A stretch of DNA of 64,000 nt, taken from the NCBI RefSeq assembly GCF_988243305.1, contig NZ_OZ547138.1. One strand, 5' to 3'. Each line of letters begins with the position of its first letter. Position 1 is the first letter of the stretch. The stretch is from a plasmid. This document shows positions 11,101 through 50,135 of this stretch, one piece after another. The translations under genes and the position numbers were made by a program. A model generated the notes under the pieces. That model saw only the letters and a program-made list of their open reading frames with translations. It was not told the origin of the DNA and made no database searches.

Positions 11101-11115
11101 ACGGGATAAGTATAT

Positions 11116-20913: not shown

Positions 20914-20924
20914 CACATAATGAT

Positions 20925-20948
20925 GCCCTTTCATTTTCCTGAAAGGGC
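20925..20948. terminator. Hairpin shared by convergent cib and imm
   Basis: gccctttc-attttcct-gaaagggc, located between the cib stop and overlapping the imm 3' end. Confidence 0.55.
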
Positions 20949-21278
20949 TTTGCAGAGTATAAAAATTAAGTAAATGGCAACCACAGGAACTGATATAACG
21001 AAACAGAATAATTCAAATATTGCAGTTAAGCTTCCGCCAACTGGATTTGTAAAGAAGTCTTTTTGCCAGAATTCTTTCCCTGTAAACCTTATTACCATTT
21101 TCTGTATTATCCTCATTGAAAAAGGAAAAGTAATGGCACTGATAATGCATCCGATGAACGCATAAAACATTCTTGCATTTTCCTGGTTATCTTTCCATCC
21201 CAGATAAAAAACTGTAAGAATAATGAGGATTGGTATCAGGCTTTTCAGTAAATACTTTACAGATATATCCAGTTTCAT
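20931..21278 (-). CDS. imm: Colicin Ib immunity protein
   Basis: 115-aa, 3-TM protein starting MKLDISVKYLLKSLIPILIILTVFYLGW, convergent with cib. The length matches Ib immunity (Ia immunity is 111 aa). Confidence 0.85.
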   Translation of the reverse strand: MKLDISVKYLLKSLIPILIILTVFYLGWKDNQENARMFYAFIGCIISAITFPFSMRIIQKMVIRFTGKEFWQKDFFTNPVGGSLTAIFELFCFVISVPVVAIYLIFILCKALSGK

Positions 21279-21418
21279 CTGGTTTCTCCTTTATTGTTAT
21301 CGTGTACCGGTGCGTGATAACATAATCACAGCATGATAATAATAATCAATAACAATAAGCTGTGTCACGTTTACATCATGGAACGGAGGTGCTCCTGTGA
21401 CCTTTGAGCAGAAAAAAG

Positions 21419-22238: not shown

Positions 22239-22754
22239 GACTGGTTTCATATCACCATGAGGCTGAAGGTGCTCATGCAATATGCCCGGGGACTGCTGGT
22301 ATCAGATCCAGAGGCGGGGAGTAAAGTTCTGGCACTGCTGGAAAGCATTAAACGATATCTCTGGCATGGCAATGTTGTCGCTGCGCTGGAACATATTGAT
22401 AATTGCGTTATGTATTGCGATGACCCTGAACTCAGCTATCCTAGCCTGAAATCCCTGCAAAAACATCTGGATGAAATGTATACCTACATCCGGAATAATA
22501 AGATGATGATCCCAAACTACGGCGAAATGCGTCGGTACGGAGAGCCGGTATCAACCGCGTTTGTGGAATCCACGATCAATGAAGTGATCGCCAGACGAAT
22601 GGCCAAAAAGCAGCAGATGCAGTGGAGCAGAAAAGGGGCTCATTATTTGTTACAGACCCGGACCGCCGTTTTGAATAACGAACTGCAGGATAAATTTGTC
22701 TGCTGGTATCCGGGTTTTCAAAGTGACGGGAAGGGACCAGCGATGGCAGCATAG
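22239..22754 (+). pseudogene. 3' fragment of an ISKra4-family (ISKpn19-like) transposase, cut by IS26
   Basis: 171 codons are in frame directly from the IS26 end (DWFHITMRLKV...QWSRKGAHYLLQTRTAVLNNEL). No N-terminal part is present. The ISKpn19 name comes from the usual qnrS1 context, from memory. Confidence 0.6.
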
Positions 22755-22777
22755 CTCACGCTGCCCCAATATTTTTT

Positions 22778-23215
22778 ATGCTCTCGGTCGTATGGAAGCT
22801 GGACCGCCTCGGTCGTGATCTTCGTCATCTCATTAATACAGTGCACGACCTGACCGCGAGGGGGACCGGTCTGAAAGTGCTGACCGGTCACGGGGCGACT
22901 ATCGACACAACAACGGCCGCTGGCAAGCTTGTCTTCGGTATCTTTGCCGCACTGGCGGAGTTTGAGCGCGAACTGATTGCTGAAAGAACGACTGCAGGTC
23001 TGGCATCAGCAAGAGCCCGTGGGCGGAACGGCGGCCGACCTTATAAAATGACGCCAGTCAAACTGCGACTGGCAATGGCATCAATGGGACAATCAGAAAC
23101 AAAGGTCAGTACGCTATGCCAGGAACTTGGGATAACCCGGCAAACTTTGTACAGGCATATTTCCCCTGTTGGTCAACTGCGGGCGGACGGGATCAAGCTG
23201 CTCAACCGTGGATAA
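22778..23215 (+). pseudogene. N-terminally truncated serine recombinase/resolvase (tnpR fragment)
   Basis: Begins at the VVWKLDRLGR motif, so the catalytic Ser region is missing. The C-terminal HTH (ITRQTLYRH) is retained. Confidence 0.8.
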
Positions 23216-23289
23216 TTTGAACGGACGGAAAAATCTGGGGTTCCGGCGTAGTACCCCTATCACCTCCACATTTTTGCAACAGTGCCTTA

Positions 23290-23521
23290 TAAATGGCAGC
23301 CTTATGTTTACTTGCCAAGATGGGCTACCATATGATGTTTTATACTGAGCAATATTAATATTATCTTTAATGGAAAAATTAAGCCCACTAAGTGACCCAC
23401 TGCTATATGGCTCTATTGTGAAGACGCCTGAGGGTAAAAATTTATACATGGTTGTCCCTATGTCTATTATTGCAAGGTTGACAATATTATTCGTTTTATA
23501 AATTTGAGCGTTTAAAATCAC
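23290..23521 (-). pseudogene. Possible amidase-gene remnant
   Basis: The AT-rich ORF contains LSGLNFSIKDNINIAQYKTSYGSPSW, which resembles the amidase-signature N-terminal region. It then runs into the antisense of the tnpR fragment. Weak call. Confidence 0.3.
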
Positions 23522-23533
23522 ACATCAAAGCAA

Positions 23534-24190
23534 TTAGTCAGGATAAACAACAATACCCAGTGCTTCGAGAATCAGTTCTTGCTGCCAGGCTGCAATTTTG
23601 ATACCTGATGTATCGACTTTGCGGGGATCTAAACCGTCGAGTTCGGCGTGGCATAAATTGGCACCCTGTAGGCTAAATTGCCCCCAGACATCTTCGGAAA
23701 AAACACCTCGACTTAAGTCTGACTCTTTCAGTGATGCACCCGCTAGGTTCGTTCCTATCCAGCGATTTTCAAACAACTCACATTTTTCTAAACAAACCCT
23801 CTCCATATTGGCATAGGAAAGATTACATCCAGAAATAAATGCTGAGCAAAAGTACATACGATTACTCACTTGATGGGCAAAGTTTGTTCGGGAAAAGTTG
23901 GCACCTTTTAAATCACACGCACGGAACTCTATACCGTAGCAATTGGCATTACTGAAGTTTGCCATCGCAAGTTGGCATTGTTGGAAACTTGCATCACGAA
24001 GATCTGCGACATCAAAGTGGCAGCCTTCGATATCACCCTGTTCAATGAACTTGCAGTTGACGAATGTCGTATCACGCAAGTTAGCACGTCGAAAGTCGCT
24101 GCGAATGAATGTGCAAGCGGTGAAGGTGAGATCACTTAAGTCTTTATGTGAAAAGTTGTGGTGCCGATATGTATGATTGTAGGTTTCCAT
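23534..24190 (-). CDS. qnrS1: Quinolone-resistance pentapeptide-repeat protein QnrS1
   Basis: 218 aa: METYNHTYRHHNFSHKDLSDLTFTACTFIRSDFRRANLRD...ILEALGIVVYPD. It matches QnrS1 as I remember it. Confidence 0.93.
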   Translation of the reverse strand: METYNHTYRHHNFSHKDLSDLTFTACTFIRSDFRRANLRDTTFVNCKFIEQGDIEGCHFDVADLRDASFQQCQLAMANFSNANCYGIEFRACDLKGANFSRTNFAHQVSNRMYFCSAFISGCNLSYANMERVCLEKCELFENRWIGTNLAGASLKESDLSRGVFSEDVWGQFSLQGANLCHAELDGLDPRKVDTSGIKIAAWQQELILEALGIVVYPD

Positions 24191-24493
24191 GAGTACTCCT
24201 TGTTGAAAGGAGGGCTAGACTACCATTATACATATGCCAAGACATTAAAATAAAAGCCTGTTACATCAACACATTACAACCCCTCAATTTACCTGTTTTA
24301 AGTGGTCAAATTGGCGCGTAGAGCGCCTATCGCTCTTGCATTGGCACGCGGCCCTGTTGAAAAAAGTTATTCGCTTTAGATAGGGTTAGGAGAGCCGTGC
24401 TTCGCCGGTAAAAAATCGGACTATCCGACGCAGGGCGGACTCATCGGCGGAGAAGCAAACTTTGACTATATCTCCCTACACTTGGAAGAGGGC

Positions 24494-25609
24494 TAGACTG
24501 GCCCCATAGATCACCAGACACTTCGACTCTCTTAAAATAAGAGGTAGTCTTGGAACTATGTTTAATACCAGTCAGAACGATAAGATGGTTGAAGTGTTAT
24601 CAGGACCTGAGCGGCGTCGGCGTCGTACACCGCAGGAAAAAATTGCCATTATTCAGCAGACTATGGAGCCCGGTATGACCGTGTCTCATGTCGCGCGCCT
24701 GCATGGCATCAATGCAAACCAGATATTCAAATGGCGCAAGCAATATTAAGACGGTTCACTGACGGCTGTTGCATCGGGCGAGGAAGTGGTGCCGGCCTCC
24801 GAACTCGCTGCCGCCAATAAGCAAATTCGCGAACTCCAGCGCCTTCTGGGCAAAAAGACGATGGAAGCCGAGATACTCAAAGAGGCCGTGGAGTTCGGCC
24901 GGGCAAAAAAATGGATTGCGCATGCGCCCTCGTTGCCTGGGAACGACGAATAAGCGACGTTTGCAGAAGTCTTGGCGTGTCGCGTGCGCAGTTGAGCATT
25001 CGGGTTCACCGGCCATCTGACTGACAGGATCGCAGACGGCAGCCCCGTTCTGACGATACCACCGTATTGTCCCGGATAAACATGGCGGTGGCTGACCTGC
25101 CGACGTATGGTTATCGCCGTGTGTGGGCGCTGCTGCGACGGGAGTCGGAGCGGGACGGCCTGCCTGTGGTTAATGCAAAGCGGGTGTATCGCATTATGAG
25201 AACGCATAATCTGCTTCTTGAACGTAAACCCGCTGATCCTTGCCGTAAGCGGGCCCATAAGGGGCGCGTAGCAGTAGCGGAAAGTAACCGGCGCTGGTGC
25301 TCAGATGGCTTTGAGTTCCGCTGTGATAATGGCGAAAAGCTGCGGGTGACCTTCGCGCAGGACTGCTGCGACAGGGAGATCATTGACTGGGCAGCGAGCA
25401 CCGGAGGCTATGACAAAGAAACGGTGCAGGATGTCATGCTGGGTGCGGTGGAAAAACGCTTCGGAAGGCAGTTGCCAACAGTGCCGGCGTTCGCCCGGTT
25501 GCTGGGACTGGAGCCTTGTACGACAGCAGTGCGAAGCCCGGAAAGCAATGGCATAGCAGAAAGCTTCGTGATGACGATAAAACGGGACTACATCAGCATC
25601 AGGATTTTA
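24494..25609 (+). mobile_element. Decayed IS3-family (IS2 group, ISEcl2-like) element, truncated by Tn3-family IR
   Basis: IS2-like IRL begins tagactggcccc at 24494. orfA (24558-) has a TAA at 24747 in place of a sense codon. orfB (25067-) lacks about 17 codons including the WLTDNG DDE region, and ends at DYISI where the Tn3 IR begins. Confidence 0.8.
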
Positions 25610-25647
25610 GGGGTCTGACGCTCAGTGGAACGAAAACTCACGTTAAG
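25610..25647 (+). repeat. Tn3-family 38-bp terminal inverted repeat (tnpA end)
   Basis: ggggtctgacgctcagtggaacgaaaactcacgttaag. The exact inverse copy is at 30132-30169. Confidence 0.97.
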
Positions 25648-28439
25648 CAACGTTTTCTGCCTCTGACGCCTCTTTTAATGGTCTCAGATGTCCTTTGGTC
25701 ACCAGTTCTGCCAGCGTGAAGGAATAATGGCCGAGCATATTGATATGTCCGTGGCAAAGCGGGGAGAGGCGTGCGATATCTTCATCATTCAGTGTTTCAC
25801 CCTGCGCCCGGAGATGATCCAGGGCTGCCTGCATATAAATAGTGTTCCATAACACGACGGCGTTAGTGACCAGCCCCAGTGTGCCCAGTTGATCTTCCTG
25901 ACCGTCGGTATATCGTTTTCTTATCTCACCTTTTTGACCGTGACAGATGGCTCTGGCAACGGCATGGCGACTTTCTCCCCGATTAAGCTGGGTCAGAATG
26001 CGCCGGCGGTAATCTTCATCATCAATATAATTAAGCAGATACAGCGTTTTGTTGATGCGCCCCACTTCAATGATTGCCTGAGTCAGTCCGGAAGGACGTT
26101 CACTTTTCAGCAATGAACGGACCAGCACTGAAACCTGTACTTTGCCCAGCTTCAGGGAGCCAGCGGTCCGGATCATTTCGTCCCACTGAAGGACTATTTT
26201 TCGGGGATCTGATTGCCCTCTGGCAATATCATTCAGCACGCCATAGTCGGCATCATGGTCCATTCGCCAGAAAACCGAAGCACCGGCATCAGCCAGGCGT
26301 GGAGAAAACTGGTATCCCAGCAGCCAGAAAAGGCCAAAGACAAGTTCGCTGGCACCTGCTGTATCGGTCATAATTTCGGTTGGATTCAGCCCGGTCTCCT
26401 GTTCCAGAAGACCTTCCAGCACAAAGATAGAGTCCCTCAGCGTCCCCGGTATAACGATGCCATGAAAGCCGGAATACTGATCGGACACAAAGTTGTACCA
26501 GGTGATCCCTCTGTTATTACCAAAGTATTTGCGGTTCGGTCCGGCATTGATTGTTCTGACTGGCGTAACAAAGCGCATTCCATCTGCAGATGCCACTTCT
26601 CCTCCACCCCATATCTGTGCCAGTGGCAGCGTTGCCTGAAAATCAACCAGTCTGGCATTAGCGCTGGTGATAGTTTCAGCCCGCAGATAGTTCGCTTTTG
26701 TCCAGTTCAGCCGGTGTCGGGTCAGTGCAGGAACATTTGATCTGATCAGTGGTTCCAGACCGATATTGCAGGCTTCAGCCATCAGCACGGCGCTGATGCT
26801 GACGGGCAGATCATCAACTCTGGCACTGGCTTCACTAGCATGGAAAAACTCATCAGCAAATCCGGTATGGGCGTTAATTTCGAGCAGCAACTCCGTTAAA
26901 TCCACCGGAGGGAGTAGATCACTGATCATTTTGCTCAGTCGTTTCAGACTGTCCGGCTCATCAAGACTGGCGAGGGGAGAAATTGTCAACCGGGGCTTCG
27001 GGCCAGAAACATCGAGTTCGACAGCCTCATTTTCGCAAAGACGTGCAGCAACCTGTCTGTAACGACTATCAAGCTGATGACCCAGAGATTTTATTGCTTC
27101 CTGCGGGTCTGTCGGGTGCCCCAAAGAACGATAAACCTTAATCCGGTTTGCCTGCCAGTCAGCACCCTGTAGTAATCTTGCACGAGGATCTCCCCACCGG
27201 TTACTGCCGGTAACGTAGACATCCCTCCGCCTCAGACTATCCTGCAGTTTACTGAGAAAGCAGAGCGTGTATCCCCTGCGGGTGATATGTTTTTCCTTGT
27301 TAATCACCAGCCGTTTCCATGACCGACTGATAATTTCCGTTGGTGCGTCGTCAAAAAACTGCCGCCGTGAGCTGAACTCCCGGCTGAGGTAGTCACAGGC
27401 ATTCAGAGTGGTAACCCCGGCAGGTGCGGATGAAAATTTAACGGTATTCAGCAGATGGGGCAGGAAACGACGAACGCGCCCGTACTGCTCCACCATTTCT
27501 TCATGAAAATTATCGTCTGAGGGCCGGGCAATTTCACGGACAAGCGTGATGATTTCAGCCAGCTTTTGCCTTGGGATGTAGCTGAACACCTCAGCACGAA
27601 TCGATTCGTCCGGTGTTTCTTCTTTCAGCAGGTACGAACATGCGCTGGCGAGCGCCAATGCAGATTTATCCAGATCCTTCAGCGAGCGGAGCCGTTTTTT
27701 CTGCCCAATCTTTCTGGCGTCACGGATGATAACGGCCAGCATGGCGTCCAGAACGTCCAATGCATCATCCAGCGCCAGCGTTTCCCATGCAAGGACAAAG
27801 GCAACCAGAACCGCCATCCTTTTCTGCGGTGACATCCTGGCAATATTGAACACCGAAGTCATACCAGCATAACGTGCGAGATTTTTCAGGCGCACAGCCG
27901 GGAGTGTACTCAGGTTTTCAGCATGCAGGCCAAAATCGTTCAGAGTTTTCCAGCGTTCAATTGCTTCATTAAACGCCGGACCACTGATGGTCACAGGGCC
28001 CTTTTTCAGTGATTCCAGTAAAGACAGGCGGCTGCAATCAGTTGGCCCCAGCAGCATCTCCAGCTGTGAACGCTGTTCGGCTGACGGTATCAGTGCCAGT
28101 TTGTTCCACAGGCGCAACGTCGCCTTTTCCCTTACCTCTGAAATCAACCGGGTCAGCGTAGTGGCTCCGGGGAGAATAATACGATGTTGCATAAGCCACC
28201 CTGTCGCCAGATCGAAAAGCAGGCCAGGACGTTCGTTGCTTATCCAGCTCCGGGTATATAAAAGACGGGTAAGGCGAAATGTCCAGGGCCAGGCAAATTC
28301 ACGATACTGATAGTGCTGACGTATCAGCGCTGCATGCTCACGGCGGGTATTTTCCCTCTGACCGTATTCTGCAAGAACGGTGATATCACGAATCCCGAGC
28401 TGTCTGGCGGTAAAATGCCGGACGCCGGAAGGAATATGA
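25643..28439 (-). pseudogene. tnpA: Tn3/Tn2 transposase tnpA lacking the first 70 codons
   Basis: The frame reads HIPSGVRHFTARQLG...EASEAENVA (931 of 1001 aa). Homology stops at 28439, where the blaCTX-M transposition unit begins. The track ORF starts only at an internal Met (28192). Confidence 0.95.
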
Positions 28440-28451
28440 CCTGGGACCTAC

Positions 28452-28784
28452 GTGCGCCCGCACCGACACCCTCACACCTTCGAGCTACTGTTGCCATTAA
28501 GGGGTCGTTTCGTGGTGCTGAATTTTGACGATCGGGGTACCGTCACCCATCGGGCGATATTGGGGGAAACCTGTACGGTGCTGGAGATGGCCGCAGGAAC
28601 CTGGCATGCCGTGCTGTCGCTGGATACCGGTGGCATAATTTTTGAAGTAAAACACGGTGGCTATCAACCCGTGGCTGCCGATGACTATGCGCACTGGGCT
28701 CCAGCGGAAGGAGAACCAGGAACCACGGAGCTTATGGCCTGGTATGCGCAAGCGCAGGTGGGCGACAGCACTTTTGCCGTCTAA
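28452..28784 (+). CDS. WbuC-family cupin (orf477-delta) downstream of blaCTX-M
   Basis: 110-aa frame (…LLLPLRGRFVVLNFDDRGTV…WHAVLSLDTGGIIFEVKHGGY) convergent with blaCTX-M-15, the usual companion of group-1 CTX-M units. The 5' end is probably truncated. Confidence 0.75.
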   Translation: MRPHRHPHTFELLLPLRGRFVVLNFDDRGTVTHRAILGETCTVLEMAAGTWHAVLSLDTGGIIFEVKHGGYQPVAADDYAHWAPAEGEPGTTELMAWYAQAQVGDSTFAV

Positions 28785-28830
28785 GGCGATAAACAAAAAC
28801 GGAATGAGTTTCCCCATTCCGTTTCCGCTA

Positions 28831-30022
<1,192 letters not shown>

Positions 30023-30131
30023 CTGTCAGACCAAGTTTACTCATATATACTTTAGATTGATTTAAAACTTCATTTTTAATTTAAAAGGATCTAGGTGAAG
30101 ATCCTTTTTGATAATCTCATGACCAAAATCC

Positions 30132-30169
30132 CTTAACGTGAGTTTTCGTTCCACTGAGCGTCAGACCCC
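30132..30169 (-). repeat. Tn3-family 38-bp terminal inverted repeat (bla end)
   Basis: cttaacgtgagttttcgttccactgagcgtcagacccc, the exact complement of 25610-25647. Confidence 0.97.
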
Positions 30170-30247
30170 GATAACAAGATAACAAGATAACAAGATAACA
30201 AGGTGTTATCTTGTTATCTTGTTATCTTGTTATCTCAAGGTGTTATC
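30170..30247. repeat. Palindromic array of 8-bp GATAACAA iterons (putative centromere/operator)
   Basis: Four GATAACAA units (30170-30201) face TGTTATC(TTGTTATC)x3 (30204-30234), giving a perfect 31-bp-arm palindrome. One more TGTTATC lies at 30241-30247. The array starts at the first base after the Tn3 IR. Confidence 0.8.
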
Positions 30248-30545
30248 TTTGTTTTACTTCTGCTATCAATCGTGATACCTCTGTTTTTGATAGTGTTTTA
30301 AGTGCTTCTACCGCCGCCCTGACAACATCAGAACGATTCACTCTGCCTTTACCTGAAACCATCTCAGCCGTTATAAGGGCATCAATGTCTTTTAGGTTTT
30401 CTTCAAAAAAAGAAATACTCACTGGTTTTGCTTTGCTTACAACCGATGATTTATCTGATGACTTTTTGGTATTATCAAGGCCAGCCGTGCCACCGTTAAT
30501 AAATGCTGCCTCGTCACGAGGTGAAGTGTTTGCTCTATTTCTCAC
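30243..30545 (-). CDS. Ribbon-helix-helix centromere-binding protein (ParG-like)
   Basis: 100-aa ORF coupled to parA (4-nt overlap). The N-terminus is flexible and basic. The C-terminus is RHH-like (RVNRSDVVRAAVEALKTL). Confidence 0.65.
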   Translation of the reverse strand: MRNRANTSPRDEAAFINGGTAGLDNTKKSSDKSSVVSKAKPVSISFFEENLKDIDALITAEMVSGKGRVNRSDVVRAAVEALKTLSKTEVSRLIAEVKQR

Positions 30546-31168
30546 AGAATAACCTCTTTCACTAACGCTTCGATTTCTTGCTGGGCTTTATCATTTTGCG
30601 TTTCAAAAATTGTCATTGATTCGGCCCAAGCATCTCGATGTGCTTTACGATCACATACCCGGGAGTTTGCCAGATGCATTTCAGGGTAATCCTTAAGTAC
30701 TTCAGCTGCCTCATTGGCTTCATTAACAAACATATTTGTGGGCGTCATGTTTAAAACGAGATATCCCCGAACATCCTCATTAAAATCTTTTGCTGCTGTA
30801 AAAACGGAGCATGTATGAGGCACAACATCCAGGTCCATCTGAGATGGGCGCAAAGGAGAAATGAATACATCTGCGGCCATCAATCCACTACGCATTTCTG
30901 CGCTATCACGGCCAGCACAGTCTGCAATAACAAAATCATAGGATTTTTCGTGTTCCTTTAACATGGCTTTGATGTTACCTGTCGCGCCTGTAACCGGAAT
31001 ATGAGGGAGATCTTCAGGGCGATTGTTGTACCAGGTTAATACTGATTTCTGGTCATCTGCGTCGACAATAATCACTCTATTGCCTAGTGACATCAGATAC
31101 GCAGCTATAGATACCGCCAGTGTACTTTTACCTACCCCACCCTTTTGACTACCTAATACTATTATCAT
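30542..31168 (-). CDS. parA: Small ParA/ParF-type partition ATPase
   Basis: 208 aa with a deviant Walker A (GSQKGGVGKST), plus the DADDQ and IADCAGRD motifs. Confidence 0.88.
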   Translation of the reverse strand: MIIVLGSQKGGVGKSTLAVSIAAYLMSLGNRVIIVDADDQKSVLTWYNNRPEDLPHIPVTGATGNIKAMLKEHEKSYDFVIADCAGRDSAEMRSGLMAADVFISPLRPSQMDLDVVPHTCSVFTAAKDFNEDVRGYLVLNMTPTNMFVNEANEAAEVLKDYPEMHLANSRVCDRKAHRDAWAESMTIFETQNDKAQQEIEALVKEVIL

Positions 31169-31294
31169 TATAGCCTCATATTAAGCTGTTAAGTTAACAA
31201 CTTAATATTGCCATCTGAACACGAACCATGCAATTATTTTTGTTATGTTAACAACTTAGTAAGTTGTTAAGTATTTGATTTATAGATTAATTAA

Positions 31295-31358
31295 GATAAC
31301 AAGACAACAAGATAACAAGATAACAAGATAACAAGATAACAAGATAACAAGATAACAA
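31295..31358 (+). repeat. Eight tandem 8-bp GATAACAA iterons upstream of parA
   Basis: The units are contiguous from 31295 to 31358; the second is GACAACAA. They sit between the impB stop and the parA promoter region, which also carries gttaacaactta repeats. Confidence 0.8.
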
Positions 31359-31379
31359 TATTATGGGTGGATTACATAT

Positions 31380-32651
31380 TCATAACTGGGCTACTGGCAA
31401 ATCTGTCCATCTGGTGGTATACGCAGGAGAAAGCATTTCCCGTTTCATTTGCCATTCAGGGGCGGTTCCTCGCCCCGCAAACCACACTTTCCCTTTTCCC
31501 GACTGGTTCAGTTCATCGAGTGTTTTCATTAACTTTTCACTGTTTTTACGGGGCTGGATTTCATCAAATAATCCCGGCTGCGCTATACCCGATGGTGTGA
31601 AATCAGCCAGCATGACTCCTGCCTTCATATAGCGGTACCCTTCACGCCAGACATGGTTTAAGGCTCTGCATGCGGCGGCAATAATGTCCCGGCTGTCCTG
31701 TGTGGGCAATGGAAGCTTTTCCACAGCGGCATTGCTGTAACAGGGTTCTTTTACTGCAAAGGGGGATGTCCGTACAAATGTCGTCACCTGCCGGCAATAC
31801 TGACGCTCCCCACGTAGTTTCTCTGCGGCCCGCTCTGCATACTGAACAACAGCCTGGTGCATGGCATCTTTGTCTGTGATTCGTTCACCAAAACTGCGAC
31901 TACAGACAATCTGCTGTTTTGCCGGTGGTGCTTCTTCCAGGGATATGCAGGACTCGCCGTTGAGTTCGCGTACCGTACGCTCAAGAATGACGCTGAAGTT
32001 TTTCCGGATGAATGCCGTGTTAGCCTGCGCCAGCTGCAGTGCTGTGTTAATACCCAGCGCATTCAGCTTTTCCGTCAGTCTGCGTCCTACTCCCCAGACC
32101 TCACCAACTGGCTGCAGCCCCAGTAGCTTCAAGGTCCGATTACGGTTTTCTGCCGTCAGCGCGACCACACCGGAAAACTGTGGCCATTGCTTTGTTGCCC
32201 ACTGGGCACTTTTAGCCAGCGTTTTTGTAGGCGCAATGCCCACCCCCATGGTGAGTCCTGTCCAGCTCTTTACCTGTTCCCTGAGCTGATGACCAAAAAT
32301 CTCCGGAGAGATGCAATGATTTATCCCCCGCAAATCAATGAACATTTCATCAATTGAGTAGGGCTCAACTGCGGGAGAAAGCGACTCCAGAACAGCCATA
32401 ACCCGTTGGCTCATGCTGTGGTACAGCGCATAATTGCTGGAAAATACATGTATTTTCTTCTCCAGGCGCATTTGTCTCACCTGAAACCAGGGCTGCCCCA
32501 TTCTGATGCCAAGGGCTTTTGCCTCCGGGCTGCGCGCGATCACACAGCCATCGTTATTGCTGAGTACGATGACCGGTTCGTTGCGAAGGTCCGGGCGGAA
32601 AACTTTTTCACATGAGGCGTAGAAACTGTTGATATCAGCCAGTGCAAACAT
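31380..32651 (-). CDS. impB: Y-family error-prone polymerase subunit ImpB (UmuC-like)
   Basis: 423 aa. MFALADINSFYASCEKVFRPDL is the canonical UmuC/ImpB start. It overlaps the impA stop (TGATG). Confidence 0.92.
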   Translation of the reverse strand: MFALADINSFYASCEKVFRPDLRNEPVIVLSNNDGCVIARSPEAKALGIRMGQPWFQVRQMRLEKKIHVFSSNYALYHSMSQRVMAVLESLSPAVEPYSIDEMFIDLRGINHCISPEIFGHQLREQVKSWTGLTMGVGIAPTKTLAKSAQWATKQWPQFSGVVALTAENRNRTLKLLGLQPVGEVWGVGRRLTEKLNALGINTALQLAQANTAFIRKNFSVILERTVRELNGESCISLEEAPPAKQQIVCSRSFGERITDKDAMHQAVVQYAERAAEKLRGERQYCRQVTTFVRTSPFAVKEPCYSNAAVEKLPLPTQDSRDIIAAACRALNHVWREGYRYMKAGVMLADFTPSGIAQPGLFDEIQPRKNSEKLMKTLDELNQSGKGKVWFAGRGTAPEWQMKREMLSPAYTTRWTDLPVAQL

Positions 32652-33088
32652 CAGCGTAACTCCCGCGTCCTGTGTATCACGTGAGTGACAACACCAAAAA
32701 TACAGATGTTTTCCGGATACAGTGTGCGGAACTCCGGGCTGTCTGAAACCGGCTCCAGTGCCGGGCGTGGGCGCAACAGCAGTCGTTTGACGGTGAACTC
32801 ACCGTCGATCTCAGCGATAACGATGTCCCCGTGTTGTGGTTTTTCGGCCCTGTCCACTACCAGCAGATCACCATTCTGCACGCCAGCCTGGTTCATCGAT
32901 TCACCGCTGGCGCGCAGAAAGAAGGTGGCTGCAGGTCTGCTGATGCAATAGCTGTTCAGATCCAGTTCCTGCTCAGCATAATCAGTGGCAGGCGAAGGAA
33001 AACCGGCCTGGCAACGATCGGCAAACAACGGTCGCACGTAACTGTCATCGCCTGAAGGGTCAGCCGGACGGTGATAAACGGTACTCAT
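32651..33088 (-). CDS. impA: ImpA (UmuD-like, LexA-type self-cleaving)
   Basis: 145 aa with an S24 peptidase-like core (GESMNQAGVQNGDLLVVDR…FTVKRL). Confidence 0.9.
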   Translation of the reverse strand: MSTVYHRPADPSGDDSYVRPLFADRCQAGFPSPATDYAEQELDLNSYCISRPAATFFLRASGESMNQAGVQNGDLLVVDRAEKPQHGDIVIAEIDGEFTVKRLLLRPRPALEPVSDSPEFRTLYPENICIFGVVTHVIHRTRELR

Positions 33089-33333
33089 GCTGCAGGCAGC
33101 CAGCTGTCGTCCTGCCAGATTTCTTCCAGCAGAGACAGGATACGTTCTTTATCCTTGTCGTTGCGGGCTCCTGTGACAGATACAGACGGGGCGCTGCCCT
33201 GGTCTATACGCAGCCAGATTTCCGGGTAGTGTGGTTTCAGACGTTGTTCGATTTCATTCTGTAGCGCCTGAAGTGTGCCTGATTTGAGGTTTTTTGTGCT
33301 CTGGCGGTCGAAAAGAATTTCAATGCGGATCAT
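33085..33333 (-). CDS. impC: ImpC
   Basis: 82 aa from MIRIEILFDRQSTKNLKSG, overlapping the impA start (ATGA). The track ORF (to 33504) runs through the promoter and LexA box, so the shorter start is preferred. Confidence 0.8.
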   Translation of the reverse strand: MIRIEILFDRQSTKNLKSGTLQALQNEIEQRLKPHYPEIWLRIDQGSAPSVSVTGARNDKDKERILSLLEEIWQDDSWLPAA

Positions 33334-33355
33334 GTTCTCATCTCCCTTTTCTTTA

Positions 33356-33375
33356 TGCTGTATGTTTATACAGTA
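33356..33375 (-). promoter_or_regulatory. LexA box of the impCAB operon
   Basis: The minus strand reads tactgtataaacatacagca (CTGT-N8-ACAG), 25 bp upstream of the impC ATG. Confidence 0.85.
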
Positions 33376-33534
33376 TTCTAATAACTGAATCCGCACACAG
33401 TCAAATGTCATTGTTGTGACTAAAAAACGCTCAATTCTCTGAGTGTGTGGCTGTATGCCTGCTGTGGGCTGCTGTGTCCAGCTTATCCACAGCATTTTGC
33501 GCACGGTTCTGTGAATAAAATACCTGGTTACCCA

Positions 33535-33695
33535 GGCCGTGCCGGCACGTTAACCGGGCTGCATCCGATGCAAGTGTGTCGCTGTCGCCGGCCTCCTCAC
33601 CCGGTCACGTTTCGTCGTTCCTCCTCCACGCGCTGCGGCTTCGGGGCCGCACCTGCATTCGTATGCGGTCGCCCGGTTACAGGTGCGGCACGGCC
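33535..33695. promoter_or_regulatory. Long imperfect hairpin element upstream of first leading-region gene
   Basis: 33535-33544 (ggccgtgccg) pairs with 33686-33695, with further imperfect pairing inward. The 3' tail ...catgtgagaggagaattcccATG resembles the tails of the family-A elements. Confidence 0.5.
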
Positions 33696-33727
33696 TGATG
33701 GAGGCCGCATGTGAGAGGAGAATTCCC

Positions 33728-34654
33728 ATGCCAAACTGGTGCTCGAATCGTATGTATTTTTCTGGTGAACCGGCACAGATCGCTGAGATTAAACGACTGG
33801 CCAGCGGCGCAGTCACACCGTTTTATCGCCGCGCCACAAATGAAGGTATTCAGCTGTTTCTGGCCGGAAGTGCCGGACTTCTGCAGACCACTGAAGATGT
33901 GCAGTTTGAACCGTGCCCCGGACTGACGGCTGCCGGACGTGGTGTTGTATCGCCGGAGAATATCGCGTTCACACGCTGGCTGACACACCTGCAGAACGGT
34001 GTGCTACTGGATGAACAAAACTGCCTGATGCTGCATGAACTCTGGCTGCAGAGCGGTACTGGACAGCGTCGCTGGGAAGGATTACCGGACGATGTCAGGG
34101 ATACCATCACCGCACTTTTCACCGCAAAAAGAGGTGACTGGTGTGGCTTCTGGAGTAACGAGGATGTATCGGTGTGGTGGAACCGTCTGTGTGACAACGT
34201 ACTGCCGGAAAAAACCATGCCGTTTGACCTGCTGACGGTTTTGCCGACCCGCCTGGATATTGAAGTGAATGGCTTTAACGGCGGTGTTCTGAACGGTGTT
34301 CCTTCTGCATATCACTGGTATACAGAACGGTATGGCGTGAAGTGGCCTTGTGGGTATGACCTGAATATCAGCAGTCAGGGGGAAAACTTCATTCAGGTAG
34401 ATTTCGACACGCCGTGGTGTCAGCCGGAAAGCGACGTTGTTGCAGAATTAAGCCGCCGTTTCAGCTGCACAATGGAGCACTGGTATGCCGAACAGGGCTG
34501 CAATTTCTGTGGCTGGCAGCGATATGAGCGTGGCGAGCTTGTTGATGTGCTGTGGGGGGAGCTGGAATGGTCTTCCCCGACAGATGACGATGAGCTGCCG
34601 GAAGTCACCGGACCTGCGTGGATAGTCGACAATGTGGCGCATTATGGCGGATGA
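33728..34654 (+). CDS. Leading-region protein (MPNWCSNRMYFSG… family; I recall it as DUF1281-like)
   Basis: 308 aa from the ATG at 33728, which follows a GAGAGGAG SD. A conserved MPNWC start is seen in plasmid leading regions. Function is unknown. Confidence 0.7.
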   Translation: MPNWCSNRMYFSGEPAQIAEIKRLASGAVTPFYRRATNEGIQLFLAGSAGLLQTTEDVQFEPCPGLTAAGRGVVSPENIAFTRWLTHLQNGVLLDEQNCLMLHELWLQSGTGQRRWEGLPDDVRDTITALFTAKRGDWCGFWSNEDVSVWWNRLCDNVLPEKTMPFDLLTVLPTRLDIEVNGFNGGVLNGVPSAYHWYTERYGVKWPCGYDLNISSQGENFIQVDFDTPWCQPESDVVAELSRRFSCTMEHWYAEQGCNFCGWQRYERGELVDVLWGELEWSSPTDDDELPEVTGPAWIVDNVAHYGG

Positions 34655-34756
34655 AGTATGACGGAGACGGGCGGGCAACCGCCCGTTTCTTTTCCGGTAA
34701 AGGATGTCGCCGGGCTCCTCTTTTTACTGCGCCGGCTGACGCGGCGCGGCAGGAAC

Positions 34757-34978
34757 GCTGCCTGTGGTCAGTGTCCCGCGTCCGGTGGGCACGGGACGGG
34801 CGCTTTTACCGCTCCCGGCTGGCACCGGTGACAGTGTACGCCAGCCCGTCGCCCTTTTCTGATGAACGCCCTTCAAGCCGCTTTCGCGGCATAGCCTTGC
34901 CGTCAGAAAGACGACGGCTGCGGTATTCCACGGTCGGCCTGACCCGTTACCGGACGCGGTGAACAGCCCACAGGCAGC
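34757..34978. promoter_or_regulatory. Long imperfect hairpin element upstream of the methyltransferase gene
   Basis: Nested perfect pairings: 34757-34767 with 34968-34978, and 34776-34786 with 34949-34959. It lies in a 384-bp GC-rich non-coding gap, and the left border motif aaggatgtcgcc (about 34700) is shared with family A. Confidence 0.5.
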
Positions 34979-35038
34979 GGGGAACGGGCACCACAGGGGT
35001 GCCCTCCCGGTGTCCTCTGTAAGAGAAGGAGCGTTGTT

Positions 35039-35722
35039 ATGTCCCGTTTTGTCCTCGGTAACTGCATCGATGTTATGGCCCGTATTCCTGATAACGCCAT
35101 TGATTTCATACTGACTGACCCGCCGTACCTCGTCGGTTTTCGTGACCGTTTCGGGCGCACCATCGCTGGCGATAAAACCGATGAATGGCTGCAACCGGCC
35201 TGTAATGAAATGTACCGCGTACTCAAAAAAGACGCGCTGATGGTGAGCTTCTACGGCTGGAACCGCGTCGATCGCTTTATGGCCGCCTGGAAAAATGCGG
35301 GATTCAGCGTTGTTGGTCACCTGGTCTTCACCAAAAACTACACATCGAAGGCCGCATATGTGGGCTATCGCCACGAATGCGCCTACATCCTGGCAAAAGG
35401 CCGTCCACGTCTGCCACAAAACCCGCTGCCGGACGTGCTGGGCTGGAAATATTCGGGCAATCGTCATCACCCGACGGAAAAGCCCGTTACCAGCCTGCAA
35501 CCGCTGATTGAGAGCTTCACACACCCGAACGCAATTGTGCTGGACCCGTTTGCAGGCAGCGGCTCAACCTGCGTCGCTGCCCTCCAGTCCGGACGCCGGT
35601 ATATCGGTATCGAGCTGCTTGAGCAGTATCACCGTGCCGGGCAGCAACGCCTTGCCGCCGTGCAACGGGCCATGCAGCAGGGGGCCGCGAATGATGACTG
35701 GTTTATGCCGGAGGCTGCGTAA
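35039..35722 (+). CDS. Orphan DNA N6-adenine/N4-cytosine methyltransferase (leading region)
   Basis: 227 aa with a DPPY motif (ILTDPPYLVG) and a C-terminal SAM-binding motif (VLDPFAGSGSTCVAA), the beta-class order. No restriction partner is nearby. Confidence 0.88.
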   Translation: MSRFVLGNCIDVMARIPDNAIDFILTDPPYLVGFRDRFGRTIAGDKTDEWLQPACNEMYRVLKKDALMVSFYGWNRVDRFMAAWKNAGFSVVGHLVFTKNYTSKAAYVGYRHECAYILAKGRPRLPQNPLPDVLGWKYSGNRHHPTEKPVTSLQPLIESFTHPNAIVLDPFAGSGSTCVAALQSGRRYIGIELLEQYHRAGQQRLAAVQRAMQQGAANDDWFMPEAA

Positions 35723-35944
35723 ATGAACTATGCCGGACACGAAAAACTGCGCGCCGACGTGGCGGAGGTGGCCAATGCCATGTGCGACCTGCGTACAACC
35801 ATGAATGAGATGGAGCAGCGGTACAGCTTTAATGCCGACACCCTGCCGGAACGTCTGGTGCGTCAGACGCTGTTTCGCGCAAACCGCCTCCTGATGGAGG
35901 CATATACCGAAATTCTTGAACTGGATGCGTGCTTCAAAGATTAA
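35723..35944 (+). CDS. Hypothetical 73-aa protein
   Basis: The ATG abuts the methyltransferase stop. Predicted helical. Unknown function. Confidence 0.55.
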   Translation: MNYAGHEKLRADVAEVANAMCDLRTTMNEMEQRYSFNADTLPERLVRQTLFRANRLLMEAYTEILELDACFKD

Positions 35945-36435: not shown

Positions 36436-37206
36436 ATGAACGAAACGCTGAATGCACTGATTTATCGCCACGCCAGCAACCTGCTGCTGGCGCAGGGCTG
36501 GCCGGAAGAGACGGATGTTGACCAGCGTAATCCGAAGTATCCGGGCTGGATCAGCATTTACGTGCGGCTGGATGTGCCCCGGCTGGCGACGTTACTTATC
36601 AACCGTCACGGCGGCGTACTGCCGCCGCTCCTGGCCTCCGCCATTCAGAAACTGACCGGAACCGGGGCGGAACTGGTACTGTCCGGCAGTCAGTGGCAGT
36701 CGCTGCCGGTACTTCCGGCAGACGGAACACAGGTGTTTTTCCCGTATGCCGGAGAATGGCTGACCGAAGACGAAATCAGGGCAGTTCTTGATGCAGTGCG
36801 CAATGCAGTACGAAGCATCTGTTACCAAGTGGCAGAAGATGCCCGGCGTATCCGGGCGGCGCTGACCACCACCGGTCAGACGTTGCTGACCCGCCAGACG
36901 CGCCGCTTTCGTCTGGTTGTGAAGGAAAGCGATTACCCCTGCTGGCTTGATGAAGATGACGAAAATCTGCCCGTGGTGCTCGATGCCATTCTGAACCGTG
37001 GCGCTCGTTTTTCGTCGGTGGAAATGTATCTGGTCAGTGAGTGTGTGGAGCATATCCTGTCCAGTGGGCTGGCCTGCGATGTGCTGCGTATACCTGATGA
37101 ACCGTCCCGTCGCTGGTTTGACCGGGATATTCTGCGGGAGGTGGTCCTGGAAGCCCGGACTGAAATCCGCAGCATGGCGGATGCACTGGCGAAAATCCGG
37201 AAATGA
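36436..37206 (+). CDS. Hypothetical 256-aa leading-region protein
   Basis: Co-directional ORF with good coding appearance. No recognisable motifs. Confidence 0.65.
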
Positions 37207-37266
37207 TGACGCTGGCGGGGAAAATCTCCGCCTTTTCCAGCCGGTCCCCGGAAAGAGCAAAAGGAT

Positions 37267-37619
37267 GTCGCCGCAGGCTCCGCTTTACCCGGCCATGCGG
37301 GGCATGGCCTTGTGGGTTTTCAGTTATGTGGCCTCAGCGTCGTGTGCGGGCTGTGCCGTGCCTCCATCGTAGCCGGGCTTCTGCGGGCGGGTTGCAAGGT
37401 AAGGTGAACCGCTGCGGTCACCCGGTCCCTCCTTCCCGTCTGCCGTGATTTTCCGGTCGTTCACCCGCTCAGATTTCGCGGTCTCACCCTCCAACTCCCG
37501 TCAGCCGTGCGCGTCAGGCTGCGGCTTCCCTTGCGCCCTTGCAACCCTGCAGGTCCGGCAAAGATGGAGGCACGGCACCGCCCGGTGTCGCGGAATATGT
37601 GAACAACGGAGGAAATCCC
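37267..37619. repeat. Family-A hairpin element, copy 1 (ssi/Frpo-like candidate ssDNA promoter)
   Basis: About 353 bp, near-identical to 44215-44568. 37353-37368 pairs perfectly with 37563-37578 (21 bp with 1 mismatch over 37348-37368/37563-37583). It ends at the ATG of the klcA/ardB-like gene. Confidence 0.7.
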
Positions 37620-38045
37620 ATGCAGTATGCGAAACCTGTCACTCTGAACGTTGAAGAGTGCGACCGTCTGTCTTTTCTGCCTTACCTGTTTGGCCTGGAT
37701 TTTCTGTATGCCGAAGCGTCTGTATACGCGCTGGCGAAAAAAATGATGCCGGAATATGAAGGCGGATTCTGGCACTTCATCCGCCTGCCGGACGGTGGCG
37801 GTTACATGATGCCGGATGGCGACCGTTTTCATCTGGTCAACGGTGAAAACTGGTTTGACCGTACCGTGAGTGCTGATGCCGCAGGCATCATTTTGACTTC
37901 CCTTGTGATTAACCGCCAGTTGTGGCTGTACCACGACAGCGGGGATGCAGGGTTGACACACCTGTACAGGATGCGCGATGCGCAGTTGTGGAGCCACATC
38001 GAATTTCACCCCGAATGCAACGCGATTTACGCGGCACTTGACTGA
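37620..38045 (+). CDS. KlcA/ArdB-family antirestriction protein
   Basis: 141 aa: ...RLSFLPYLFGLDFLYAEASVYALAKKMMPEYEGGFWHFIRLPDGGGYMMP... This matches the KlcA/ArdB pattern. The track start at 37539 lies inside the repeat. Confidence 0.75.
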   Translation: MQYAKPVTLNVEECDRLSFLPYLFGLDFLYAEASVYALAKKMMPEYEGGFWHFIRLPDGGGYMMPDGDRFHLVNGENWFDRTVSADAAGIILTSLVINRQLWLYHDSGDAGLTHLYRMRDAQLWSHIEFHPECNAIYAALD

Positions 38046-38905: not shown

Positions 38906-39471
38906 CTTCGGCTCCCGGCTGCCTGGCGGCATCCGGTCGTCAGGCCCGACTCCGACGGGCAGCTGCTGGCGCACCCGCCAGTCTCCGCCGAACCCGCTGG
39001 CGCGGTTTCGGGCTGCCGCTACGGTCCGATGCGTGAAAACCCGGCTTGCAGCGACCGTTCCGGTCGCGCCGCCCCTGTCGCGCCGTGACCTGCGCTCCCT
39101 GCACACCTGACGGTGTGTGAGGAAACTGCGCCTGATGGCGCAGCAGTCCTCCCTCCTGCCGCCACTCCTGCGGCCTGTTTCCCGCTGTGGACTTTCCGGG
39201 GGGCAGACGTAACCCCCTCCCGTTCCATCTGTCCAGGGTGAGATGCACCGGCCACAAAATTTTTAGCCATGAACCCGGCAAAAAATTTTGCGTCCGCCCC
39301 CGGACAGCTGCCCCGTGAGGCGGTAAACGGGCCCCCATCGGAAAGGTCCACTGCGGGGAGAAAACCCTGTGAAGTGGACGGCAGGAGGAGCTTTCGCTCC
39401 TCTGAAGGGGCACATGAACGTCCCGTCGCCGGTATCCGGTTTATCTCACATCTTTCAGTCAGGAGGTTCTT
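38906..39471. repeat. Family-B hairpin element, copy 1 (upstream of ssb)
   Basis: About 566 bp with high similarity to 45251-45800, and its 3' two-thirds to 48281-48653. 39152-39161 pairs with 39379-39388, and 39181-39199 pairs imperfectly with 39339-39358. It ends at the ssb ATG. Confidence 0.7.
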
Positions 39472-44104: not shown

Positions 44105-44214
44105 ACCAGTGGAGGTATGCTTGAGGGGCAGGGACATGCCAGTCATGATCGTTTCATATCAGGGGTGGTCTGGAGGTCATGCGGTGTGCTCCCTGCTCTC
44201 GCCGGAATAAGGAA

Positions 44215-44568
44215 GTCGCCGGCGGCTCCGCTTTTACCCGGCCATGCGGGGCATGGCCTTGTGGGTTTTCAGTTATGTGGCCGCCGTGTCGTGTGCGGGC
44301 TGTGCCGTGCCTCCATCGTAGCCGGGCTTCTGCGGGCGGGATGCAAGGTAAGATGAACCGCTGCGGTCACCCGGTCCCTCCTTCCCGTCTGCCGTGATTT
44401 TCCGGTCGTTCACCCGCTCAGATTTCGCGGTCTCACCCTCCAACTCCCGTCAGCCGTGCGCGTCGGGCTGCGGCTTTCCTTGCGCCCTTGCATCCCTGCA
44501 GGCCCGGCAAAGATGGAGGCACGGCACCGCCCGGTGTCGCAGAACATGTGACTATGGAGGATTCGGGA
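44215..44568. repeat. Family-A hairpin element, copy 2 (upstream of ardA)
   Basis: Near-identical to 37267-37619. 44302-44317 pairs perfectly with 44512-44527. It ends at the ardA ATG. Confidence 0.7.
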
Positions 44569-45069
44569 ATGTCTGTTGTTGCACCTGCTGTATACGTTGG
44601 AACCTGGCACAAATACAACTGTGGAAGCATCGCCGGACGCTGGTTTGACCTGACCACGTTTGATGATGAGCGCGACTTTTTCGCCGCCTGCCGTGCTCTT
44701 CACCAGGATGAAGCCGATCCTGAACTGATGTTTCAGGATTATGAGGGATTCCCGGGGAATATGGCCTCTGAATGTCATATCAACTGGGCCTGGGTTGAAG
44801 GCTTCCGCCGGGCACGGGATGAAGGCTGCGAAGAGGCTTATCGTCTCTGGGTGGATGATACCGGTGAGACGGATTTTGACAGCTTCCGCGATGCCTGGTG
44901 GGGCGAGGCTGACAGTGAGGAGGCTTTTGCGGTTGAGTTCGCCAGTGATACCGGCCTGCTGGCTGACGTGCCGGAGACGGTGGCGCTCTATTTTGACTAT
45001 GAGGCGTATGCGCGGGATTTATTCCTGGACTCCTTCACCTTTATTGACGGTCATGTGTTCCGTCGGTGA
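44569..45069 (+). CDS. ardA: Antirestriction protein ArdA (type I R-M inhibitor, DNA mimic)
   Basis: 166 aa starting MSVVAPAVYVGTWHKYNCGSIAGRWFDLTTFDDERDFFAAC. Highly acidic, with a GGAGG SD. The track start at 44488 lies in the repeat. Confidence 0.92.
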   Translation: MSVVAPAVYVGTWHKYNCGSIAGRWFDLTTFDDERDFFAACRALHQDEADPELMFQDYEGFPGNMASECHINWAWVEGFRRARDEGCEEAYRLWVDDTGETDFDSFRDAWWGEADSEEAFAVEFASDTGLLADVPETVALYFDYEAYARDLFLDSFTFIDGHVFRR

Positions 45070-45250: not shown

Positions 45251-45800
45251 CTTCGGCTCCCGGCTGCCTGGCGGCATCCGGTCGTCAGGCCCGACTCCGA
45301 CAGGCAGCTGCTGGCGCACCCGCCAGTCTCCGCCGAACCCGCTGGCGCGGTTTCGGGCTGCCGCTACGGTCCGATGTCTGAAAAACCAGGCTTGCAGCGA
45401 CCGTTCCGGTCGCGCCGCCTCTGTCGCGCCGTGACCTGCGCTCCCTGCACACCTGACGGTGTGTAAGGAAACTGCGCCTGATGGCGCAGTTGTCTGCCCT
45501 TCCGCCGCCACCCCTGCGGCCTGTTTCCCGCTGTGGACTTTCCGGGGGCTGAAGCGGCCACAACACGTGTCAGCCGTCCAGGGGGGAGATGTACCAGCCA
45601 CAAAACTTTTTGCCGCAAGCGTCAAAAACTTTTGCGTCTGCCCCCGGACAACTGCCCCGTGCCGTGGCTGTCGCTGCCCCATCGGAAAGGTCCACTGCGG
45701 GGAGAAACCCCGAAGAAGTGGACGGCAGAAGGGGCTTTCGCCCCTCCGGGGGAGCAACCGGTCGGCCCGGCGACCTGATTCAGCAGAAGGAGACGTTTTC
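45251..45800. repeat. Family-B hairpin element, copy 2
   Basis: Aligns by eye along its whole length with 38906-39471. It ends at the ATG of the unknown 144-aa ORF. Confidence 0.7.
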
Positions 45801-48178: not shown

Positions 48179-48280
48179 TTTTTAATTGCAGATGTCGTGC
48201 TGTTTTCTCTGTTTTCACCTGTGCGGGAGTGGTGTGCCAGTGACCACCACATGCCATTGTTGTGCCGTCGTTTTTCTTCA

Positions 48281-48653
48281 GTCGCGCCGGATGCGGCGCT
48301 CCCTGCACACCTGACGGTGTGTAAGGCCACTGCGCCTGATGGCGCAGCTGTCTCTGCCTGTCTGCCGCCGCACTGCGGCCTGTTCTCCGCAGACGGACTT
48401 TCCGGGGGAACATACACGACCACATCCCGTTTCAGTTATCCAGGGGAGAGATGTACCAGCCACAAAACTTTTTGCCGCAGGCGTCAAAAACTTTTGCGTC
48501 TGCCCCCGGACAACTGCCCCGTGACGTGGTGAGCATCCCCCGTCGGAAAGGTCCACTGCGGGGAAATCCCCGAAGACCCGGACGGCAGAAGGAGCTTCGC
48601 TCCTCCGGGAAATGACCTGGCTGACCCGGCAGTCGTGACGATGAGGAGACAAT
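48281..48653. repeat. Family-B hairpin element, copy 3 (lacks the first ~170 bp)
   Basis: Aligns with the 3' two-thirds of copies 1 and 2 from gtcgcgccg…ccctgcacacctgacggtgtgt onward. It ends at the start of the 283-aa ORF. Confidence 0.65.
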
Positions 48654-50048: not shown

Positions 50049-50135
50049 TTGACCGAAAAACGGGACAGGATGTGGGAATGTCGGACCGCGCACGCGCACT
50101 CAGACATTCCCCACCTGGTCAGGGCTTTGCCCCGA
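50049..50135 (-). other. oriT: oriT (IncI1/R64-type) with predicted nick site
   Basis: The minus strand reads GGGGTGTCGGGGCAAAGCCCTGACC…GGGAATGTCTGAGTGCGCGTGCGCGGTCCGACATTCCCACATCCTG/TCCCG. There are inverted repeats at 50074-50082 and 50103-50111. The RP4/R64-like ATCCTG/T nick motif places nic between 50066 and 50065. Confidence 0.7.

Follow-up and report, generated by a model that had tools for sequence, protein, structure and literature searches.

The two copies of a repeated segment of approximately 350 bp, one immediately upstream of a klcA/ardB-type antirestriction gene and the other immediately upstream of ardA, are each identified here, with a probability of about 0.88, as a class 2 (ssp2-type) single-stranded DNA (ssDNA) promoter cassette of the IncI/IncF leading region. 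The identification draws on homology, strand, fold, promoter-like hexamers and context, all of which were observed in the 64,000-nt stretch of plasmid DNA under analysis (contig NZ_OZ547138.1, hereafter the window) and its published relatives. Two published names already exist for the element, and its recovery is therefore an independent rediscovery rather than a new finding; nonetheless, reading the raw sequence picked out a genuine regulatory element, whose first publication dates from December 2025, and rightly dismissed the open reading frames (ORFs) within it. Hairpins of this kind let a plasmid make anti-restriction proteins from the incoming single strand ahead of host nucleases, which helps to explain the successful establishment of IncI and IncF resistance plasmids; the element is present in about two-thirds of complete E. 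coli genomes. The additions to the literature are modest, namely a common variant with a rebuilt spacer, signs of gene conversion and a candidate family member upstream of a DUF1281 gene.

Extent of the repeat and its plasmid context

The repeat pair, its arms and the genes that follow it are as listed below.

37267..37619, plus (direction of transcription; the minus strand folds): class 2/ssp2-type cassette, copy A, 5' of the klcA/ardB-type gene, assigned by homology
44215..44568, plus: class 2/ssp2-type cassette, copy B, 5' of ardA, assigned by homology and minus-strand fold
37353..37368 (copy A) and 44302-44317 (copy B), plus: left 16-nt arm GTGCCGTGCCTCCATC, exact match
37563..37578 (copy A) and 44512-44527 (copy B), minus: right 16-nt arm, exact match
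37620..38045, plus: klcA/ardB-type antirestriction gene, 141 aa (PF03230 Antirestrict, E 2.7e-26; 'antirestriction protein' in NZ_CP145695.1)
44569..45069, plus: ardA antirestriction gene, 166 aa (PF07275 ArdA, E 1.9e-29; ArdA in NZ_CP145695.1)
50065..50073, minus: nick-region motif CACATCCTG/T (the slash marking the nick), by sequence, between a mobC-like gene and nikA, continuing as CACATCCTG/TCCCG

The initial annotation had described the two segments as alignable along their whole length with scattered indels of 1-3 nt, and the first part of this description held, with a mean column identity of 96% in a MAFFT alignment and 97% identity across an ungapped 300-nt core (37284-37583 versus 44233-44532) found by repeat search, but the two copies differ by a single 1-nt indel within the conserved part. 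A 350-bp repeat at 96% identity cannot be due to chance. The borders required adjustment at both ends, since the left limit lies approximately 6 nt further out, at AAGGA (37261/44209), and similarity does not reach the start codons as had been proposed, being lost approximately 16 nt short of each ATG, past the GTGA at 37604/44553; the Shine-Dalgarno regions are therefore not common to both copies. The perfect 16-bp inverted repeat reported for each copy, with arms about 195 nt apart, was recovered exactly, as the 16-mer GTGCCGTGCCTCCATC has precisely four occurrences with 0 mismatches, at 37353 (plus), 37563 (minus), 44302 (plus) and 44512 (minus), and its arms are separated by 194 nt in each copy. 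Pairing between the arms continues imperfectly both inward and outward, to approximately 30-32 nt at 90-91% complementarity.

The window is the leading region of an IncI-gamma/K1 plasmid, as indicated by a repZ pseudoknot at 11030-11180, which was the only match in an Rfam scan of the whole window, and by the element being 100% identical to its counterpart in the IncI-gamma/K1 plasmid NZ_CP145695.1. The gene order between approximately 33.5 and 50 kb (DUF1281 gene, methylase, klcA, ssb, parB-like, psiB, psiA, ardA and nikA/nikB, all on the plus strand) is that of a typical leading region. The motif CACATCCTG/T at 50073-50065 on the minus strand is presumably the IncP/IncI nick-region consensus of MOBP oriT sites, and nikA/nikB lie directly to its right (annotated as mobA and relaxase in NZ_CP145695.1, and as nikA/nikB in pESBL). 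As this nick-type motif is on the minus strand beside nikA, the minus strand is taken to be the transferred strand and hence the template of klcA and ardA, which are on the plus strand at 5.5-12.5 kb from the motif; the same orientation has been reported as general for leading-region anti-defence genes (Samuel et al.). A position in the leading region immediately 5' of an operon templated by the transferred strand is one of the features expected of class 2, and both copies show it. The proteins encoded downstream belong to different Pfam families (PF03230 versus PF07275) and have no mutual similarity, in agreement with the earlier proposal that two unrelated anti-restriction genes stand behind one cassette.

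Homology to published class 2 elements

Class 2 was defined in the IncI1 plasmid pESBL, for which expression profiling minutes after transfer revealed six induced operons, each behind a large hairpin (Wen et al., NAR 2025, PMC12672017). The hairpins 5' of klcA and ardA have high pairwise similarity and were termed class 2 ssDNA promoters, while three others of the ssi1-3/Frpo type constitute class 1 and the methylase hairpin constitutes class 3 (PMC12672017). Leading-region genes were induced up to approximately 500-fold 15 min after transfer, with klcA and ardA driven by class 2 within those 15 min; start sites were mapped by 5' RACE for all six promoters, and induction faded with conversion to double-stranded DNA and was prolonged in uvrD recipients (PMC12672017). 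The homologue in F was named ssp2 and drives yfgB/ardB (Fraikin et al., bioRxiv 10.64898/2026.01.09.698686); it also stalls complementary-strand synthesis at the end of the stem, a block that UvrD relieves (bioRxiv 10.64898/2026.01.09.698686). The same F element was found independently by a third group from codon-usage patterns (PMC13478746).

When compared with pESBL-EA11 and F, both window copies were collinear with the pESBL klcA- and ardA-upstream hairpins and the F ardB-upstream element over 347-349 nt at 85-89% identity, with blastn E-values of 1e-118 to 1e-129; copy A was 87-89% identical over 349 nt to the pESBL klcA-upstream hairpin (locus 7019-7366) and to F ssp2 (locus 10402-10750). 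Gene order is the same in F and pESBL. Given this match in both homology and context, membership of class 2 is direct. The shared features include the position directly 5' of klcA/ardB and ardA, the orientation relative to oriT, and a long hairpin with invariant basal stems (5 + 16 + 7 bp) and a conserved apical region, and the presence of a pair of class 2 copies is shared with IncI1 plasmids. In contrast, the stem between the -35 and -10 mimics has been rebuilt on both arms in the window. The middle helix is CTGC:GCAG rather than the GGCG:CGCC of F/pESBL, the non-template arm rather than the template arm carries the extra unpaired bases, and the -10 is TACGAT opposite ATCTTT rather than TAAGAT opposite ATAAAA. 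The initial annotation's notion of a regulatory cassette for early expression is thus supported, although it missed both the active form, i.e. the hairpin of the transferred strand, and the prior description.

Fold of the transferred strand and promoter-like boxes

The following features were located within the two copies.

37347..37584, minus: long hairpin of copy A (DNA folds)
44296..44533, minus: long hairpin of copy B (inverted-repeat search and DNA folds)
37392..37397, minus: -35-like TTGCAA of copy A on the non-template (3') arm, fully paired with 37539-37544 (sequence and MFE structure)
44341-44346, minus: -35-like TTGCAT of copy B, paired with 44488-44493 (sequence and MFE structure)
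37366..37371, minus: -10-like TACGAT of copy A on the non-template arm, facing ATCTTT at 37560-37565 (sequence and MFE structure)
44315-44320, minus: -10-like TACGAT of copy B, facing 44509-44514
37291..37321 (copy A) and 44240-44270 (copy B), plus: terminator-like hairpin GGCCATGC-GGG-GCATGGCC followed by TTGTGGGTTTTC (terminator scans)

The minus strand of the 353-nt copy A folds at -88.7 kcal/mol (z -4.19) and that of copy B at -92.6 kcal/mol (z -5.51), with 0 of 100 shuffled sequences as stable in either case, and both copies pass the cut-off of the published discovery screen (< -75 kcal/mol). Across 16 distinct cores, all 16 fold at -70 to -80 kcal/mol. The transferred strand was more stable than its complement by 3.6-11.4 kcal/mol in all five sequences tested, the 250-nt core of copy A giving -71.1 kcal/mol on the minus strand and -67.5 kcal/mol on the plus strand. 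The plus strand folds well too (z -3.6), and the strand is therefore not decided by folding alone.

From its base, the hairpin consists of a 5-bp CGGGC/GCCCG stem, the perfect 16-bp stem, the mismatched -10 region, a 5-7-bp GCCGG stem, a 4-bp CTGC:GCAG helix flanked by asymmetric loops, the 11-bp -35 helix, and finally a conserved apical region of approximately 130 nt with weak predicted structure. The basal 28 bp are invariant among the 16 distinct sequences, in which there are a few changes to G.T pairs and the remaining variation is confined to loops. Covariation, which the initial annotation had suggested as a check on the stems, lends thin support to the pairing. RNAalifold on a MAFFT alignment of the 16 distinct cores found zero compensatory pairs; between the window copies there is one compensatory change, T:A to A:T, in the -35 helix, together with a C:G to T:G change elsewhere, and the middle helix is exchanged as a whole between the variants (CTGC:GCAG versus GGCG:CGCC) with its pairing preserved. 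Since the -35 helix is misaligned by MAFFT when the two variants described below are combined, pair changes were counted within each variant.

The apical region (37400-37535 and 44350-44485) is more conserved than the promoter-mimic stem, including an 85-nt stretch that is invariant across five sequences, and is purine-rich on the transferred strand (GGGAAGGAGGG). This conservation is not accounted for by the promoter model and may be linked to roadblock function or protein binding.

Within the stem, the first and third bases of TACGAT face T.T and C.T mismatches, and the spacer between the -35 and -10 boxes measures 20 nt on the non-template arm but 15 nt on the template arm; in F/pESBL class 2 the longer spacer is on the other arm (15 and 19 nt, respectively). 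As the spacing is non-canonical and the asymmetry reversed, the boxes predicted here may differ from the published assignment. Start sites are predicted from the position of the -10 at approximately 37570-37574 in copy A and 44519-44523 in copy B, and the putative start site of copy A would be covered by the right 16-nt arm on the template arm. When the duplex form was scanned for promoters, neither region contained a sigma-70 consensus spaced at 16-18 nt, and this lack of a conventional duplex promoter agrees with activity in hairpin form only. The terminator-like hairpin lies within the 5' 80 nt of the repeat (copy A RNA fold -18.5 kcal/mol, z -2.26) and probably ends upstream transcripts, insulating the cassette.

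Distribution and variants

The element was present in 3639 of 5426 complete E. coli genomes, and 8192 of its 8301 places in these genomes were on plasmids. Although between three and eight BLAST places were returned per record, these could not be counted as extra copies, being mostly the element matching its own inverted arms; copy number is one in F, two in IncI plasmids and four in one plasmid with a tandem duplication. The genes following the element were surveyed for 28 copies in 18 sequences, and 25 of the 26 scorable downstream ORFs encode KlcA/ArdB or ArdA, with the remaining one in a deletion derivative. The description of the element as a portable early-expression cassette therefore stands with regard to early expression, by homology to the pESBL class 2 promoters, but portability is less apparent given this near-constant pairing with the same two gene types.

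Identity to the window core was bimodal in complete E. coli genomes, with 1624 records at 95% or above, 3450 at 80-90% and 17 between. What separates the two variants is the stretch of stem linking the -35 and -10 mimics, which is altered on both arms, with the side of the unpaired bases reversed. An exact swap of arms between the variants was considered and rejected, because the exchanged segments are not mutual reverse complements despite the reversed asymmetry. The window-type hairpin is common before klcA/ardB in complete E. coli genomes and rare before ardA, where no more than 55 of 1318 records reached at least 99% identity among matches spanning both hairpin and ardA (44296-44700). Further, the window copies are 95.6% alike, whereas the window ardA copy is 85-87% identical to the ardA copies of other plasmids. 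Since the two copies are closer to each other than to their positional counterparts, this pattern suggests gene conversion between them.

Two plasmids departed from the common arrangement. In the Salmonella Litchfield plasmid CP082601.1, the klcA-to-ardA block is tandemly duplicated (20001-35839) to give four class 2 copies, of which the third is truncated at element position 73, and the dispersed repeats seem to drive rearrangement. NZ_CP086528.1 lacks ssb through psiA, and a 128-aa ORF replaces ardA. An exact search of genome contigs with an apical 20-mer returned 13 stretches, mostly short contigs with little added diversity, including contigs assigned to Streptomyces, Opitutales, Ferruginibacter, Collinsella, Oscillospiraceae, Oscillibacter and Acinetobacter. 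Most of the contigs with implausible hosts carry the full enterobacterial cassette with klcA, and look like contaminating or mis-binned plasmid fragments.

Proposed mechanism and alternative explanations

Under the class 2 interpretation, the minus strand would enter the recipient during conjugation 5'-first from a nick near 50066, running toward lower coordinates, and would be briefly single-stranded. The inverted repeat of approximately 240 nt would then snap back into a long GC-rich hairpin whose stem mimics a duplex promoter, with complete pairing at the -35 (TTGCAA/TTGCAT) and some mismatches at the -10 (TACGAT opposite ATCTTT). Host sigma-70 RNA polymerase would start inside the basal 16-bp stem with the 5' arm as template and transcribe klcA (copy A) or ardA (copy B) ahead of complementary-strand synthesis. 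After conversion to duplex, the hairpin would be gone, the hexamers would lie 15 or 20 nt apart and the promoter would be silent, giving a transient pulse of expression. Judging by F ssp2, a hairpin this stable probably also holds up synthesis of the complementary strand until it is melted by UvrD, and an intrinsic terminator against upstream transcripts is probably supplied by the 5' part of the repeat. Early induction, the start sites and the roadblock are carried over from the published orthologues and would be expected to apply here, as would the corresponding behaviour of the remodelled-spacer variant.

The alternative of most weight, compatible with the above and possible if somewhat unlikely, is that the hairpin has been selected mainly as a roadblock or priming (ssi-type) signal, with the promoter secondary. 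The fold is very stable and the apical region is strongly conserved without a promoter role, and F ssp2 stalls complementary-strand synthesis precisely at the stem end; moreover, when ssp2 was swapped for ssp3, with equal promoter and no roadblock, transfer into EcoKI hosts was not restored (bioRxiv 10.64898/2026.01.09.698686). However, ssp2 is required for yfgB/ardB expression (bioRxiv 10.64898/2026.01.09.698686), the pESBL class 2 start sites were mapped inside the hairpins (PMC12672017), and all scorable copies, bar the one deletion derivative, are directly 5' of a gene with its own Shine-Dalgarno sequence. An ordinary double-stranded promoter with the inverted repeat as a repressor site is very unlikely, despite the location directly upstream of genes and the frequency of inverted repeats in operators, as arms 194 nt apart with approximately 60 nt of pairing per arm are far larger than an operator, no duplex sigma-70 consensus was found, and, in the published data, expression declines with conversion to double-stranded DNA and is prolonged in a uvrD mutant (PMC12672017). 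The good fold of the plus strand could be read as an RNA-level structure, i.e. a long 5' leader or riboregulator of a transcript begun upstream, but the element has no Rfam family match at gathering score, a terminator-like hairpin stands between the upstream gene and the element, and class 2 5' RACE starts sit where the -35/-10 boxes of the hairpin predict (PMC12672017), which makes this reading highly improbable.

Two further explanations concern the origin and coding capacity of the repeat rather than its regulation. The perfect 16-bp inverted repeats look terminal and are present in two copies in one replicon, as would be seen if a miniature inverted-repeat mobile element had inserted 5' of two genes. 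This is extremely unlikely, and an identity as such an element was rejected, because homology runs 86 nt to the left and approximately 25 nt to the right of the arms, complementarity carries on into the flanking sequence, there are no target-site duplications, and the context is constant in the 28 copies bar the one deletion derivative, with almost all places in E. coli plasmid-borne. The chance that the repeat encodes small proteins is close to negligible, even though ORFs exist in both copies (37203-37448 and 37445-37654, with twins at 44179-44397 and 44394-44648) and some database records have hypothetical proteins annotated under the class 2 element. Net indels of -5, -4, -3, +1, +4, +5 and +6 nt separate the homologues, some of which have in-frame stops, and substitutions are even over the three codon positions. 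The internal ORFs thus lack the protein-level conservation that the initial annotation had named as a refutation, in keeping with its view that they recur only through repetition of the DNA.

Other hairpins of the leading region

Further hairpins or hairpin-bearing repeats were located in the same region.

38906-39471, 45251-45800 and 48278-48653 (no strand assigned): three class 1 (Frpo/ssi1-3) repeats, matching the three ssi sites of pESBL and the two Frpo regions of F
33533-33697, minus strand folds: short hairpin 5' of the DUF1281 gene, arms of 27 nt, -52.2 kcal/mol, z -2.99
34700-35038, same strand as class 2: class 3 (ssp3/M.EcoGIX-type) hairpin 5' of the N6_N4 methylase gene at 35039, arms 34756-34786 and 34949-34979

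The class 1 repeats interleave with the class 2 copies and lie 5' of ssb, an ORF downstream of ardA, and a DUF4942 gene. Frpo and ssi1-3 (Masai and Arai 1997; Bates et al. 1999) likewise rely on the transferred strand snapping back into a hairpin that imitates a sigma-70 promoter, and share location and orientation in the leading region with class 2, but differ in the downstream genes. There was no match between class 2 and the three class 1 copies of the window by either blastn (word size 7, E<1e-3) or an nhmmer profile (E<10), and membership of the Frpo/ssi class was rejected for the two class 2 copies on this lack of sequence similarity.

The hairpin 5' of the DUF1281 gene (ATG at 33729; annotated CDS 33752-34654) is 100% invariant in five IncI plasmids, pESBL and three others among them, and 99% identical in F. 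It is collinear with class 2 of the F/pESBL type, with a local alignment score of 48 compared to 19.5 +/- 2.7 for shuffled sequences (0 of 1000 reaching the observed score), and its non-template arm reads TTGCAT-15-TAACGT-GCCGGCACGGC where pESBL class 2 reads TTGCAT-15-TAAGAT-GGAGGCACGGC. It is absent from the six promoters described for pESBL (PMC12672017), and no connection between DUF1281 and ssDNA promoters was found in the literature searched. The -75 kcal/mol screen would have missed this shorter hairpin. On sequence grounds, it could be a seventh, undescribed ssDNA promoter. Taken with the spacer variant, this raises the tentative idea, which we would not yet favour, that the class 2 lineage is larger and more plastic than described. 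On such a reading, the segment between the -35 and -10 mimics may be rebuildable on both arms at once, and gene conversion within a plasmid may carry a variant from the klcA copy over to that of ardA; if true, IncI plasmids would carry two ssp2-type roadblocks instead of one.

The class 3 hairpin (34756-34979) has a minus-strand fold of -96.2 kcal/mol (z -5.68) and is 96-98% identical in F and pESBL. It has only a 26-nt border motif in common with class 2, AAGGA[TA]GTCGCCG..GGCTCC (34700-34725; nhmmer E 0.054), and the hairpins themselves are unrelated; ssp3 is also reported to lack roadblock activity (bioRxiv 10.64898/2026.01.09.698686). A strong terminator at 34663-34698 precedes it. A 'hypothetical protein' CDS at 34651-34962 (WP_012615291.1 in NZ_CP145695.1) overlaps the class 3 hairpin, and the hypothetical-protein annotations under the class 2 and class 3 hairpins are probably spurious calls in GC-rich hairpin DNA.
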